In this document: piece after piece, positions 1,997-8,010 of the stretch | Numbering within the stretch: the first letter of the stretch is position 1 | How the letters are laid out: the number at the start of each line of letters is the position of its first letter | IMG/VR virus record: IMGVR_UViG_2690316243_000011 | Source: a virus | Lineage: Duplodnaviria > Heunggongvirae > Uroviricota > Caudoviricetes | DNA: 8,759 bases | Direction: 5' to 3' (one strand) | The notes under the pieces: model-generated | The model's database searches: none | What the model saw: the letters and a program-made list of their open reading frames with translations, nothing else | What the model was told of the DNA's origin: nothing | Position numbers and translations under genes: made by a program

Positions 1997-3055
1997 TCAT
2001 CCGTTCTGGCTGACTAAATCCTGTACTTCCCGAACCGTCTGCTCAAAACGTTCAGTCTCCAGCTCAACGCCAATTGCACGACGCCCGAGCGCCAGTGCCG
2101 CTTTCACTGTCGAACCCAACCCCATGAAAAAATCTGCAATCAGGTCACCCGGACGACTGCTAGCGCTGATTATCTGCTGCAGCATTTCTGCCGGTTTTTC
2201 GCACGGATGTTTCCCGGGATAGAACTGCACCGGTTTATGCGTCCACACATCGGTATACGGCACCTGCACCGTCACGCCAAAATACCGCCGCAGATGTTTA
2301 TATTCACTCAGCAGCTCCGCATACTGCCGGTTCAGTGAGGTATACGTATCCACCAGCTGGTGGTGGAGCTTTTCCAGTTCACCACGCCGATGCTTCTCTT
2401 CTGCCACCCGGGCAAACAGCGCCTGTAATTTCAGATAATCGCTTTCATTCGGCAACTGCCACTGACCGGCACTGAACCAGTGCGACACCATGTTTTTCTT
2501 TCCTGTGGCATCTGCAATCTGTTTTGCCGTTATCCCCAGGGCAGCTCGCGCATCACGAAAGTAAGAAATCAGCGGGGCCATCACATGCTGTTTCAGTGCA
2601 CTGCCCTTCGCCGCATACCCGGCATCTTTCGGACGATACGGCCCCTGATAATGTTCCGCGAACAGAATGCGCTCTGTGGCGGGGAAATACGCCCGCAGGC
2701 TTTCCTTGTTGCATCCGTTCCAGCGTCCGGACGGCTTCGCCCAGATAATATGGTTCAGCACACTGAAGCGTTCACGCATCATGATTTCGATATCAGATGC
2801 CAGGCGATGACCACAGAACAGGTAAAGACTTCCGGCAGGTTTCAGCACCCGCCAGAACTGCGCCAGACACTGGTCCAGCCACTTCAGGTAATCATCGTCG
2901 CCCTTCCACTGGTTATCCCAGCCCTCAGGCTTCACTTTAAAGTACGGCGGGGCCGTGACTATCAGGTCAACAGAATTTTCGGGTAACGACCGGATAAATT
3001 CCAGGCAGTCGGCGTTGATTAACTCACAACTGGATATTTTTACAGTATTAAGCAT
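1997..3055 (-). CDS. DNA methyltransferase, beta-class N6-adenine/N4-cytosine family; orphan, no restriction endonuclease partner
   Basis: 352 aa. Motif IV-like DLIVTAPPYF near the N-terminus and motif I-like DFFMGLGST near the C-terminus, in the beta-class order. Motif IV reads APPY rather than the canonical D/N/S-PPY (confirmed on the DNA: acg gcc ccg ccg tac). Confidence 0.85.
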   Translation of the reverse strand: MLNTVKISSCELINADCLEFIRSLPENSVDLIVTAPPYFKVKPEGWDNQWKGDDDYLKWLDQCLAQFWRVLKPAGSLYLFCGHRLASDIEIMMRERFSVLNHIIWAKPSGRWNGCNKESLRAYFPATERILFAEHYQGPYRPKDAGYAAKGSALKQHVMAPLISYFRDARAALGITAKQIADATGKKNMVSHWFSAGQWQLPNESDYLKLQALFARVAEEKHRRGELEKLHHQLVDTYTSLNRQYAELLSEYKHLRRYFGVTVQVPYTDVWTHKPVQFYPGKHPCEKPAEMLQQIISASSRPGDLIADFFMGLGSTVKAALALGRRAIGVELETERFEQTVREVQDLVSQNG

Positions 3056-3147
3056 GGATCATTAAGCCTGTCTCTGATAGGCTCATTCTGCTTTTGCGCA
3101 AAGCAGTGGGCCTGAGGTTTGCTTGTGAACCCAACGCATGAGCAGAT

Positions 3148-3178
3148 GGCTGGTGGGTGCCCCTAACACCCACCAGCC
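3148..3178. other. Perfect 12-bp stem-loop between the small wHTH ORF and the methyltransferase start
   Basis: ggctggtgggtg (3148-3159), loop cccctaa, cacccaccagcc (3167-3178). No U-tract on either strand, so it is not a canonical intrinsic terminator. Confidence 0.7.
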
Positions 3179-3194
3179 GCCCATTTACCACAAA

Positions 3195-3219
3195 TAAAAA
3201 AGCCTTCACTGCGGAAGGC
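3195..3219 (-). terminator. Intrinsic terminator overlapping the stop of the 65-aa ORF
   Basis: Minus-strand RNA: gccuuc-cgcagu-gaaggc (6-bp stem) followed by UUUUUUAUUU (plus-strand A-run 3195-3201). Confidence 0.6.
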
Positions 3220-3403
3220 GTCTGTAACAACCGAACTGATAGTCTGCCAGACCCGCCATAACCAGCTGGGTCAGTATTAACTGGCAGCGTTCGCGTGAAA
3301 GGTAAGTATTCTGCGCTATCTCCCCGACTGTCGCCGGTTCGGTAACGCTTAATTCATTAAACACCACTCTGGCGGTTTCTGTCATATCCTGCTGTTTTAG
3401 CAT
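3206..3403 (-). CDS. Small hypothetical protein (65 aa) with a winged-helix/HTH-like segment; possible DNA-binding regulator
   Basis: ATG at 3403 with upstream AAGGAAAAG. The segment TVGEIAQNTYLSRERCQLILTQLVMAGLADY fits a helix-turn-helix pattern. It has its own terminator and lies just upstream of the methyltransferase. Confidence 0.5.
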   Translation of the reverse strand: MLKQQDMTETARVVFNELSVTEPATVGEIAQNTYLSRERCQLILTQLVMAGLADYQFGCYRRLPQ

Positions 3404-3521
3404 GTCTTTTCCTTTTCCGGTTAACGTGACACACCAATAACTCTTGTCGAAAAAGCCAGCAAGCTGAAAGACAGGTATTCACCGCCACCAGCGCGTTTAC
3501 TGTACTGACGCGATTTCAGTC

Positions 3522-3547
3522 ATAAAAAACCCGCTCGGCGGCGGGTT
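3522..3547 (-). terminator. Intrinsic terminator about 40-65 nt downstream of the Q stop codon
   Basis: Minus-strand RNA: aacccgc-cgccga-gcggguu followed by UUUUUUAUG. Confidence 0.6.
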
Positions 3548-3586
3548 GTAGAAACTCTTCTAACGTCAGGCATAAAACGCCCATCG

Positions 3587-4441
3587 TTATGACGAATTTA
3601 CCACAGATTCCGGAAAAATCAACCTAGTTACCTTTTTTAACTGCCGCTCAGCCCATGCTTCTTCAATATCAAACCGGGTCACCAGCGCATCATAAAATTT
3701 CTTAACTGTTTTTTCCCATGACGCGCGTGTTATCTGGTTTGTCACCTCGCATATAGCATTAAATGCCTCCGTTGATGGTAGTCTTTCATAGCCACGACCA
3801 CCACAACGCTGGCAGTCTCTGATAACAGGCATACCACGTTTTACCGACTCTTCACGATGAATGGCGACACCACGCCCACGGCAATCCTTACAGGCGGTGG
3901 AAACCTCACCCTTTCCGCCACACTCCGGACAGGCAACTTTTACCACCTCTCTGACTTTTTTCCATTCTTCCCAGTAAGACGGATACACACCTTTCGTACA
4001 CTTTGCCCATACCGGCGGCTTACCATCCGGATACTGGATCTTGTTTGTAAAAACCTCGCTTTCAATAAATTTTTTTCCGTGACAGCAGGGGCACTGTTTT
4101 TTGCTCGCCGCGCTACGGGCATAATCTTCAAACGCATACGAAGCCATAATACGCATCACTGCCGGTTTTATTTCTGCCGGGAGTTTTCTTAACGCCGCCA
4201 CGCGATCACACCGACTGAGTGCATATTCTGTCAGCAATTCTGTTGCCCGCTCTCTGTCATTCATACTAATGCCCATTTTCCCAAGGAACGCAGAAACCCC
4301 CATCTCAGCCCGATTCTGTGTCATGCCCTGCGCGGCCATCACATCAGTGATACTCAGCGCATCTTTCGACGTTGAGGCCGATGCATCAGTCAGGCCGGGG
4401 GATTTTGGGGAGTAGTATTTCGGTAAATCTTCCAGTTTCAT
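3587..4441 (-). CDS. Q: Late-gene antiterminator Q, Q82/QuuQ-type, with CxxCxGxG zinc-finger repeats; complete copy
   Basis: 284 aa. Motifs CPCC, CPECGGKG, CKDCRGRG and CQRCGGRGYERLPS, with a C-terminal segment WEKTVKKFYDAL resembling phage 82 Q / QuuQ as I recall them. Its ATG overlaps the stop of the upstream rusA fragment (ATGA). Position downstream of rusA is as expected for Q. Confidence 0.7.
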   Translation of the reverse strand: MKLEDLPKYYSPKSPGLTDASASTSKDALSITDVMAAQGMTQNRAEMGVSAFLGKMGISMNDRERATELLTEYALSRCDRVAALRKLPAEIKPAVMRIMASYAFEDYARSAASKKQCPCCHGKKFIESEVFTNKIQYPDGKPPVWAKCTKGVYPSYWEEWKKVREVVKVACPECGGKGEVSTACKDCRGRGVAIHREESVKRGMPVIRDCQRCGGRGYERLPSTEAFNAICEVTNQITRASWEKTVKKFYDALVTRFDIEEAWAERQLKKVTRLIFPESVVNSS

Positions 4442-5677: not shown

Positions 5678-6736
5678 TTATGCTTTCCACTTCAGAACAC
5701 CCGAATTTCTCGCGTGCATTAAAAAACGAATCAGCAACAACAGCTGACTGCCGTGTTTCTCTTCAAAATCTTTTACTCCGGCATGTAGTTCGTTACGGCA
5801 TTTACGGCATAACGGAATAACAAACAAATCATCAGCCTTTGTTCCCATCCCTCCCAGTCCATGACCAATGATGTGATGCGGATCATCTGCCTGATTGCCA
5901 CACGTCATGCATTTCTGCGTTTTTACCCAGCGCGTGTATACAGGCATCTCTTCCCGTTGTGATTTCTGGCGCTGGAGATACTGAGCCGGTGACTCCGGAT
6001 CAACGGCAATGCTGACCACCGTCTTTTCCTGTGGTGGGTTCTGTTGCTGGTGGACGTGAGGCAGTAACGCAATATTTTTTGTGCGCTGCTTCAGTATGCT
6101 GGTGGCTGTCTGCTCTCCCGGTATGATGTCGCTTTCACTGTACACAGAGCGAATTTTTTCCGCACGCAACCCCAGCGAACGACGTAATACCGCTTCCGGT
6201 AGCGCGTCCGCCACCTGATTGCGGACCGCCCACCAGGATAATTCAGCCAGAGATAATTCACGCTCCTGCGTACCGCTTATTGCGTGACCGATGACGTCAA
6301 TCATCCATGCTGACAGGTTTTGATGAGCAAGTTGCTCGAGTGATTCGGATGTCTGGTCACGCAGCTGGTTGTCGCAGTGCCAGCACAACACCATTGCGCC
6401 GGTACCATAACGGTGAATGACGGTTTCGCTGTGATGATAATCGCCGTGTGGCCACTGGCAGGATTTAATATGGCGCAACAGCCAGTCAGACAATGCACCA
6501 GCACCACCAGCAGCACGAATCACCCGTGCGTTACTGAAAAACGGCAGCAATGTTTTGTCTTCCACCAGCGGCTGGCGAGCGGCAGGAACGACCCCGGACG
6601 GCAGATTACGCATGCTTTTTGGTTCCGGCTCCACCAGTATTCTGCCGTTATGGAATGCTGACATTGATTCACGGCCTGGCTTAACGATAACCAGACCGAG
6701 TTCCGGTACCAGAACAGGTCGAAGTAATACCCGCAC
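5678..6736 (-). CDS. DUF968 / YdfU-like prophage protein with two Cys/His HNH-like motifs
   Basis: 352 aa in the frame from a GTG at 6736 (alternative ATG at 6664 would give 328 aa). Motifs CQWPHGDYHH...CWHCDNQ and CMTCGNQADDPHHIIGH...CRKCRNELH. Sits between rem-like and rusA as ydfU does in Qin (from memory). Confidence 0.6.
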   Translation of the reverse strand: MRVLLRPVLVPELGLVIVKPGRESMSAFHNGRILVEPEPKSMRNLPSGVVPAARQPLVEDKTLLPFFSNARVIRAAGGAGALSDWLLRHIKSCQWPHGDYHHSETVIHRYGTGAMVLCWHCDNQLRDQTSESLEQLAHQNLSAWMIDVIGHAISGTQERELSLAELSWWAVRNQVADALPEAVLRRSLGLRAEKIRSVYSESDIIPGEQTATSILKQRTKNIALLPHVHQQQNPPQEKTVVSIAVDPESPAQYLQRQKSQREEMPVYTRWVKTQKCMTCGNQADDPHHIIGHGLGGMGTKADDLFVIPLCRKCRNELHAGVKDFEEKHGSQLLLLIRFLMHARNSGVLKWKA

Positions 6737-7719: not shown

Positions 7720-8010
7720 AGCCTGCTTCTCCTTGCCTTTCGGCACGTAAGAGGCTAACCTAGATTTGCCGTTCATAGATTGAGCCTCAGATTAATGTTA
7801 AGCGTCTTGCCGGACGCGTAATGTTAACTGGGGCTTTTCTCTATCTGCCTTTTGGTGTTCATGCCTGAGACAGATAGCCTCAAGCACCCGCTGCAATTCT
7901 ACTTAACTCTCCTTTTCCCGCAAACCGTTTTTATCCCCAGCGGCAAATCGAATACACCACCAGCGCCACCGCCATCGCAATTCCTACCGTTGTTAATGCT
8001 TCAGGCCAGG

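Follow-up and report, generated by a model that had tools for sequence, protein, structure and literature searches.

How do prophages silence, and then deploy, adenine methyltransferases of the M.EcoGII family? To our knowledge, this has not been described, even though these enzymes methylate adenine in any sequence context, are toxic under constitutive expression, and find wide use as tools. The question is raised by IMG/VR virus record IMGVR_UViG_2690316243_000011 (Caudoviricetes), a stretch of 8,759 nucleotides (nt) that is referred to as a whole as the window. Here, a small open reading frame (ORF) of 65 amino acids (aa), a perfect hairpin of 12 base pairs (bp), and a gene for such a methyltransferase follow one another on the minus strand. 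An initial annotation of the window had likened this order to a controller-protein arrangement and had suggested that ORF and hairpin form a regulatory unit for the methyltransferase. The analysis described below leads to a different reading, to which we give a probability of about 0.45: the hairpin belongs to a leader that works in cis at the RNA level and holds methyltransferase expression back or sets its timing, and the ORF is a facultative accessory whose logic resembles that of the com-mom system of phage Mu. The elements on which the argument turns are the following.

3403-3206, minus strand: small 65-aa ORF
3219-3196, minus strand: T2, an intrinsic terminator with its stem at 3219-3202 (GCCTTC/GAAGGC) and T6 at 3201-3196
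3193-3056, minus strand: structured leader, the 5' untranslated region of the methyltransferase gene (alignments A5 and A7, covariance model R1)
3184-3179 with 3143-3138, minus strand: helix P1a, AUGGGC with GCUCAU, which extends P1, across a 4-nt internal loop, to an irregular stem of ~20 bp
3178-3148, minus strand: helix P1, the 12-bp hairpin, formed by the inverted repeat 3148-3159 / 3167-3178 with a 7-nt loop
3131-3126, minus strand: candidate 5' strand of helix P3, consensus NGRUCA, here GGUUCA, resembling the 3' end of 16S rRNA (GAUCA)
3106-3088, minus strand: helix P2, CUGCUUU / AAAGCAG, with a 5-nt loop
3061-3056, minus strand: 3' strand of P3, UGAUCC, directly ahead of the methyltransferase AUG
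3055-1997, minus strand: methyltransferase gene, PF01555

The perfect hairpin, and the ORF with its ribosome-binding site and terminator, are present on the minus strand where the initial annotation had placed them. Pairing in P1 is perfect over 12 bp, and a T-run follows it on neither strand. The window contains a single perfect repeat with 12 bp or more and a loop of 3-10 nt, and such a repeat arose in 2 of 300 dinucleotide-preserving shuffles. Each of the 36 distinct hairpin sequences found among related loci folds into a helix of 10-14 bp, and in 35 of them the length is 12-14 bp. Nine of the 12 P1 pairs have changed on both sides, with 97% of cells paired. Arms from the same locus pair at -20.9 kcal/mol overall, compared with -17.2 kcal/mol for arms swapped between loci; in the divergent set, the corresponding values are -19.2 and -13.6 kcal/mol. 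The hairpin is a selected structure and is not a terminator, the latter as previously supposed. Wobble pairs in the P1 variants are mostly G.U on the sense strand. This tolerance, taken together with the compensatory changes, indicates an element that works at the RNA level rather than an operator in double-stranded DNA, and the proposal that the hairpin serves as a DNA-binding site is not borne out.

The sequence of the palindrome invites another explanation, namely that it is primarily a recombination element, an inverted Chi pair acting on RecBCD. The 5' arm of P1 contains Chi (GCTGGTGG, 3177-3170), and the palindrome of this particular allele adds a plus-strand copy at 3149-3156, so that Chi lies on both strands. 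Chi occurs 10 times in the 8759 bp of the window (six copies on the minus strand and four on the plus strand), compared with 0.45 expected from shuffles (maximum 3), and the homology of phage PhiR5_1 stops exactly after the Chi-bearing P1 arm. However, Chi is lacking in 12 of the 36 hairpin variants, in which the helix is still kept by compensatory changes, and only five of the 36 variants, or about 31 of 146 loci, have it on both strands. A primary function in recombination is accordingly highly improbable. Chi was likewise rejected as the main cause of the invariance of the 5' arm: AATGGGCGGCTGGTGGGTGTT, which holds Chi, looked invariant in an alignment of eight sequences, and the variants without Chi speak against that explanation as well. 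The copies in the window lie at 2350-2363, 3149-3177, 3485-3492, 6046-6105, 6504-6569, and 7957-7964. Two of these places are palindromic Chi pairs, one being helix P1 and the other 2350-2363 within the methyltransferase gene.

P1 is the main helix of a conserved leader of ~140 nt. Between genera in which the synonymous sites of the ORF are saturated, the leader remains 77-83% identical. A cross-genus alignment spanning the interval between the ORF stop codon and the methyltransferase start codon shows higher conservation in the non-coding sequence than in the coding sequence next to it. Five of the seven P2 pairs have changed on both sides. P1a (AUGGGC/GCYCRU) is paired in 97.7% of cases and has undergone one-sided changes only, UA to UG in 14 sequences and GU to GC in 15. 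P3 (NGRUCA/UGAUCY) is paired in 91% of cells and is near-invariant on both strands, with one U.U mismatch in the window allele; its support from covariation is weak. The UGGGC of P1a has an alternative partner, GCCCA at 3111-3107, and RNAalifold applied to A7 favors UGGGC/GCCCA, both strands of which are invariant. This preference makes two mutually exclusive folds possible.

To collect the leaders, one-genome-per-species and viral collections were scanned for a DNA pattern; the scan returned about 146 true loci, all in Enterobacterales. The pattern fixes AATGGGCGGC, GCCAT, and AGGCCCA, so that the invariance of these segments in that set is partly by construction; they are also invariant in seven protein-anchored loci, with small deviations in phage mEp460. 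A covariance model realigned 59 leaders, 57 of them distinct, to give A7. Here, 92.7% of cells are paired (88.3% in shuffles), 15 pairs have changed on both sides (7.6 +/- 1.5 in shuffles, with none of 500 reaching 15), and the covariation score is 0.182 (0.101 in shuffles and 0.02-0.06 in slid controls), although fitting A7 to the model structure biases these pair counts upward. In the MAFFT alignment, made without such fitting, the signal is weaker, with a covariation score of 0.139 against 0.100 in the control, and none of 500 shuffles reaches it. In Rfam 15, riboswitches included, no family matches either the window leader or the divergent leader L039 at the gathering threshold; the best match over the hairpin, P26, obtains 24 bits against a threshold of 36, from the stem alone. 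The leader has compensated helices and a fixed place 5' of one gene family, the general marks of a structured cis-regulatory leader. It is a conserved RNA, apparently undescribed so far, that may have a regulatory effect.

Other accounts of the leader were considered and rejected. A small ORF inside it (from the ATG of AATGGGC, or a 60-aa ORF from TTG at 3230-3048) is contradicted by P1 indels and by early stops in Klebsiella and in locus L014 that, as judged by eye, break the frame. A sigma-70 promoter for the methyltransferase, either TTGCGC-16-TATCAG or an extended -10 element TGTGRAAAT, is weak, varies in register between alleles, overlaps the covarying P2, and was not called by the promoter scan. 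Kinship of the C/A-rich segment with the small RNAs (sRNAs) GcvB or AgvB/AsxR was dismissed, as the pairing is non-collinear and those sRNAs map elsewhere.

The initial annotation had also allowed for a processing site, and the irregular stem of P1a and P1, about 20 bp with an internal loop, could be one for ribonuclease III (RNase III) or serve some other processing or stability function. Cleavage would detach the methyltransferase mRNA from the mRNA upstream and leave it with a remodeled 5' end, and the small protein would be unneeded. The length and architecture of the stem suit this idea, as does its conservation independently of the ORF, and precedents exist in the lambda N leader and the early RNase III sites of phage T7. 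Nevertheless, the flanking single strands AAUGGGCGGC, AGGCCCA, and GAGCCUAUCA are strictly conserved, which RNase III sites rarely need. Processing as the explanation of the stem is unlikely; it is compatible with the cis-regulatory part of the favored reading.

The gene that the leader precedes encodes a beta-class N6-adenine DNA methyltransferase, whose full length PF01555 covers (E = 7e-41). Its placement in the M.EcoGI/M.EcoGII family is probable and is drawn by way of phage 1720a-02. The window and this phage are 96.5% identical in DNA over the leader and the 5' coding region, and the methyltransferase of 1720a-02 is very similar to M.EcoGII (PMC5778455). M.EcoGI and M.EcoGII are non-specific enzymes that the lysogen does not express and whose constitutive expression is deleterious (PMC5778455). 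That article mentions neither the upstream region nor a regulator, and the word 'upstream' is absent from its text. Non-expression in the lysogen and toxicity fit a gene that lies behind a late promoter and two terminators and whose structured leader is without a Shine-Dalgarno sequence. Indeed, none of the aligned leader loci has a Shine-Dalgarno sequence ahead of the methyltransferase start. The window copy differs from its relatives in the catalytic DPPY motif, which reads APPY (codons 33-37, 2941-2955, minus strand, with GCC). TAPPYF was found in one of 245 loci, that of the window, compared with TDPPYF in 241 and TDPPYY in three, and the APPY copy is probably an inactive allele or else a sequencing error.

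The genes of the window are all read from the minus strand, and the order along the transcript is Q, the late promoter pR', T1, ORF, T2, hairpin, and methyltransferase. The remaining features are as follows.

Whole window, minus strand: direction of the genes, with transcription running right to left
6736-5678, minus strand: DUF968 gene
5677-5297, minus strand: RusA gene
5300-4551 and 4441-3587, minus strand: two copies of Q, both PF03589 (lambda-Q family)
3622..3595, minus strand: pR', a lambda-type late promoter, with -35 TTGATT at 3622-3617, a 16-nt spacer, and -10 TAAATT at 3600-3595
3580..3588, minus strand: AACGATGGG, initial transcribed pause element, identical to the sigma-70-dependent pause-inducing element of lambda pR'
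3547-3522, minus strand: T1, a tR'-like intrinsic terminator, with stem AACCCGC/GCGGGTT and T6
3463-3426, minus strand: non-coding block CTTGCTGG-N15-AGAGTTATTGGTGTGTCAC, about 23 nt ahead of the ORF start codon
1956-1555, minus strand: four tRNA genes
579-13, minus strand: DUF1737/SASA esterase gene

The setting appears to be the head of a Q-dependent late operon in a lambdoid prophage of the Shiga toxin (Stx) phage type, late transcription being predicted from sequence features. All features of lambda-type late control are present: a PF03589 Q protein, the -10 hexamer TAAATT, AACGAT, and a downstream intrinsic terminator. pR' overlaps the 3' end of Q, whose stop codon lies at 3589-3587. Direct comparison of the window sequence, TTGATT-16-TAAATT-cgtcat-AACGATGGG, with that of lambda pR' (locus L003, 753-800), TTGACT-17-TAAATT-tgactc-AACGATGGG, shows an identical -10 and a -35 that matches at 5/6 positions. 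The sigma-70 consensus scan missed pR', which scores 8/12, below the threshold of the scan. Transcription would start at about 3588. AACGAT reportedly plays a role in pausing at lambda pR', as Ring, Yarnell and Roberts are said to have described in 1996. With pR' upstream, T1 ahead, and T2 within, the features flagged initially lie inside this late operon.

T1 would end the pR' transcript at ~66 nt, in the manner of lambda 6S RNA or of StxS (PMC7547250). Both T1 and T2 consist of a GC-rich stem-loop followed by a U-run, which the 12-bp hairpin lacks, and a terminator scan of 2900-3700 found four terminator-like sites compared with 0.9 expected. The last codons of the ORF form the 5' arm of T2, and the ORF stop TGA (3208-3206) lies within the T2 loop. 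The T2 stem is kept across genera via compensatory changes (GCCTTC/GAAGGC, GCCTCC/GGAGGC, GCTGCCA/TGGCGG), and a GC-rich stem-loop, often a full terminator, stands ahead of GTGRAATGGGC with or without the ORF.

These elements suggest how the methyltransferase might be controlled. In the lysogen, pR' transcripts would stop at T1 or, failing that, at T2, and the toxic enzyme would stay silent. After induction, Q-modified RNA polymerase would pass T1 and T2, and the leader would then serve as a cis-acting RNA that limits or times synthesis of the enzyme. The sole ribosome-complementary element of the leader would be UGAUC at -6 to -2. This could pair either with GAUCA, which stands at the 3' end of 16S rRNA, or with the leader's own GRUCA in P3. 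The winged-helix protein encoded by the ORF would be an optional trans-acting accessory of the leader or of the enzyme, following a logic like that of Mu com-mom with an unrelated protein. Translational control by the leader is something we infer, as is any role for the 65-aa protein.

The ORF is a genuine gene. It starts with ATG, 6 nt after the Shine-Dalgarno sequence AAGGA at 3414-3410, and has 334 homologues in Escherichia, Shigella, Salmonella, Klebsiella, Citrobacter, and Buttiauxella. A full HMMER scan retrieved small proteins only, with identities down to about 35%. The family signature is MLKQxDMT...RCQLILTQLxMAGL...(F/Y)(K/R)R, in which T45/Q46 of helix 3 and the K/R-R pair of the wing are conserved. 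Compared with the phiP27 copy, the ORF has a nonsynonymous divergence (dN) of 0 and a synonymous divergence (dS) of 0.24; between genera, dN/dS is 0.03-0.05 with dS saturated, which indicates strong purifying selection. AlphaFold2 models the protein confidently (predicted local distance difference test score, pLDDT, 93; predicted template modeling score, pTM, 0.81), with helices at 9-16, 26-33, and 37-49 and strands at 53-56 and 59-62. Three helices and a beta-wing correspond to the winged-helix topology H1-(S1)-H2-H3-S2-W1-S3. The earlier description of the product as an HTH-type, winged-helix-like protein thus holds. The protein is conserved, and the link of its homologues to the methyltransferase gene extends down to 34% identity.

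The structural neighbors of this protein in Foldseek are domains of generic kinds, namely MarR, IclR, O-methyltransferase N-terminal, and Zalpha (best E 1.5e-3), with a template modeling (TM) score of about 0.8 to MarR/OhrR domains. The protein is assigned to PHROG 331, whose function is unknown. In Pfam, the TrmB, MarR_2, and DprA_WH matches all fall under the gathering thresholds, and none is to HTH_3; PADLOC and NCBIfam gave no meaningful match for the protein, and the family profile found nothing significant among PDB sequences. Membership of the TrmB family was rejected: PF01978 reaches only 18 bits where its cut-off is 25.6, and the protein has just 65 aa, while the family is also defined by a C-terminal sugar-binding domain. 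The database name 'TrmB family transcriptional regulator', which many homologues carry at NCBI, is therefore unsupported, which is of relevance for annotation. The gene is best described as a common, uncharacterised prophage gene.

A winged-helix protein encoded just upstream of a methyltransferase gene, with a perfect palindrome in between and conserved T45/Q46 and wing residues, might be a transcriptional controller comparable to C proteins, which would bind the palindrome as a double-stranded DNA operator and switch a methyltransferase promoter. Several results oppose this idea. The fold is a winged helix and not of the Xre type, and no promoter was called between ORF and methyltransferase by the sigma-70 scan. 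No nuclease gene stands beside the methyltransferase in the contexts examined, where tRNAs, stx, or lysis genes follow. The arms differ by G.U-type changes and bulges that break the symmetry of half-sites, and the palindrome is kept where the protein is absent. In the 3404-3520 spacer, no conserved palindrome was seen by eye, without a C-box model, and the block at 3463-3426 is non-palindromic. The controller-protein comparison of the initial annotation is thus very unlikely to be right.

The relation between gene and leader is asymmetric. In each of 58 leader loci, a methyltransferase homologue comes next (56 significant, two truncated). The ORF lies directly upstream of the leader in 34 of these, with its stop codon 16-22 nt ahead of AATGGGC. 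Starting from the protein instead, the leader is present in 78/78 loci anchored on the mEp460-type ORF, a set of low diversity with an identical protein in all, and in 7/7 diverse protein-anchored contexts with ORF identities down to 34%. The only exceptions to the link are PhiR5_1 and an Stx2k phage, in which homology breaks inside or just after P1. There are two separable conserved units, namely the ORF cassette and the terminator-leader-methyltransferase unit. Because the ORF implies the leader and the leader does not imply the ORF, the winged-helix protein seems to be an accessory whose function is tied to the leader or to the enzyme, much as Com depends on mom. Of the regulatory unit first proposed, the persistent association of ORF and methyltransferase stands, but a dependence of the hairpin on the ORF does not, as the leader is unchanged in 24/58 loci without the ORF.

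There is a different explanation, in which the small gene is an autonomous moron. It would carry both a promoter and a terminator of its own, would be expressed in the prophage state, and would encode a DNA-binding winged-helix regulator with targets unrelated to the methyltransferase. Its adjacency to the leader would then be due to an insertion hot spot just after tR', with only about 20 nt between the units. The block at 3463-3426, conserved from Escherichia to Klebsiella and Plesiomonas, is restricted to loci with the ORF (20/24, compared with 0/24 ORF-less loci) and has a promoter-like geometry (TTGCTG, 17 nt, TATTGG, and then about 30 nt to the ATG); it could be the promoter or the 5' leader of the small gene. 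The cassette is bounded by T1 and T2, the leader and methyltransferase occur without it in 24/58 loci, and other morons use the same slot: mEp460 and Salmonella have a 139-aa ORF there, and phiP27 has a GIY-YIG gene. On the other side, no copy of the ORF between 34% and 100% identity was seen apart from the leader, even though the upstream flank of the ORF is heavily mosaic. A sigma-70 promoter is not recognisable in the block, which was uncalled by the sigma-70 scan and is without a usable -10, the conserved last base being G. A T2-like hairpin is also present at ORF-less loci, and thus T2 is not the cassette's own terminator. An independent moron is a serious contender, if a rather unlikely one.

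Several points weigh against the leader-centered reading itself. No ORF homologue lies within 1.5 kb upstream in 24/58 leader-methyltransferase loci, a few of which keep 3' remnants of the ORF. Leaders without the ORF are equally conserved, so that the protein is dispensable and cannot be the source of the constraint on the leader. The 65-aa protein is slightly acidic (net charge of about -1, from a sequence count), and double-stranded DNA is the usual ligand of winged helices. P3 and UGGGC/GCCCA are almost invariant, and covariation therefore neither supports nor refutes either pairing; to this may be added the upward bias of the A7 counts. Finally, accessibility of the methyltransferase start (-6..+3) is 0.39, compared with 0.48 with shuffled upstream sequence, and is lower in 46/57 leaders; the effect of start-codon sequestration is modest and weakly supported. 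A bolder version of the favored reading would make the leader an undescribed class of cis-regulatory RNA that switches between P1a with P3 and UGGGC/GCCCA, gating a toxic, non-specific DNA and RNA adenine methyltransferase, with the 65-aa protein as an RNA-binding effector dedicated to it and, on a different fold, a functional counterpart of Mu Com. This version, taken as a whole, is doubtful.

Replacements and inserts at the locus provide further observations. In phage phiSTEC1575-Stx2k (locus L004, 3982-4695), an AraC-family HTH gene replaces the methyltransferase, and ORF, T2, and P1 are kept. In loci L068, L075, L193, L134, L181, and L024 (Enterobacter, Citrobacter-like, and others), an unrelated protein of at least 127 aa without a Pfam match occupies the position of the ORF; in four loci, it ends in ...EITSLVDTIGN, about 35 nt ahead of the leader. 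T1 is a mosaic boundary at which homology to phiP27 and Stx2a phages begins exactly. The slot between Q/pR' and a T1-like terminator carries varied inserts: the GIY-YIG nuclease gene of phiP27 lies there (L002, 2702-3931), as does the 139-aa ORF, without a Pfam match, of mEp460 (L247, 1738-2154) and Salmonella prophages (L006, 3424-3843). In mEp460, this ORF is bracketed by two near-identical T1-type terminators. Region 3522-3622 (minus strand) has a weak isrK-like Rfam match (E = 0.57), and a 2026 preprint reports that PasD/STnc100 sRNAs adjoin PF03589 Q genes.

As for the window itself, a run of N at about 4550 separates the two Q copies, and a second one, at about 1640-1700, lies between two copies of tRNA-Arg(tct). 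The closest complete genome, TOE17 (99.6% identical), has a single Q and three tRNAs. The duplications of Q and tRNA look like scaffolding of collapsed prophage repeats.

The module is widespread, and the small gene, its terminator, and the hairpin are very common in prophages of gut bacteria. Between T1 and the methyltransferase, phiP27 and many Stx2a phages are 90-95% identical to the window, with tRNAs and stx2 following in these phages, and the module matches 3122/5426 complete E. coli genomes, in up to eight places per genome. In many Stx2 phages, stx genes come directly after it. A covarying leader with an optional winged-helix partner offers a testable handle on the control of the methyltransferase, as well as a candidate RNA motif absent from Rfam.

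Comparison with known systems places these elements among familiar ones. The enzyme shares gene family and prophage location with M.EcoGI and M.EcoGII, for which silence in lysogens and toxicity have been reported (PMC5778455), and differs in carrying APPY instead of DPPY in the window copy. The transcriptional setting resembles the lambda pR'-6S RNA-tR' region and StxS: a constitutive late promoter next to Q, with the same -10 and pause element, early termination, and presumably Q-dependent read-through into morons and lysis genes. It departs from them in the first RNA, which would be about 66 nt here compared with 194 nt in lambda and 258 nt for StxS, and in the second terminator, T2, after a small coding cassette. 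Like lambdoid morons of the HK97/HK022 type, the small gene sits between late-operon terminators just past Q/pR' and has its own 5' block; unlike them, it is without a recognisable sigma-70 promoter and is never apart from the methyltransferase leader.

With C proteins (C.PvuII, C.AhdI, and C.Esp1396I), the window has in common a gene for a small HTH-type protein beside a methyltransferase gene and a proposed role in the timing of expression. However, C proteins are Xre-type HTH dimers that act on C-boxes upstream of their own gene and control a nuclease, whereas here the fold is another one, no nuclease gene adjoins the methyltransferase, no C-box is recognizable by eye, and the gene has a position in a late operon. 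Mu com-mom offers a parallel in logic, although not in the proteins involved, as the 65-aa protein has no sequence or fold similarity to Com. Com is a zinc finger that binds a stem-loop in the mRNA 5' of its modification gene; the window protein is a winged helix without CxxC pairs, its only cysteines being Cys40 and Cys59. Moreover, com overlaps mom, while here a terminator and a 140-nt leader intervene, and many loci with leader and methyltransferase lack the protein. What the two systems have in common is their layout. In each, a gene for a small protein (62 aa in Mu and 65 aa here) lies on a late transcript just upstream of a toxic DNA-modification gene, an RNA stem-loop stands between the two genes, and the translation start of the modification gene is poor or sequestered.

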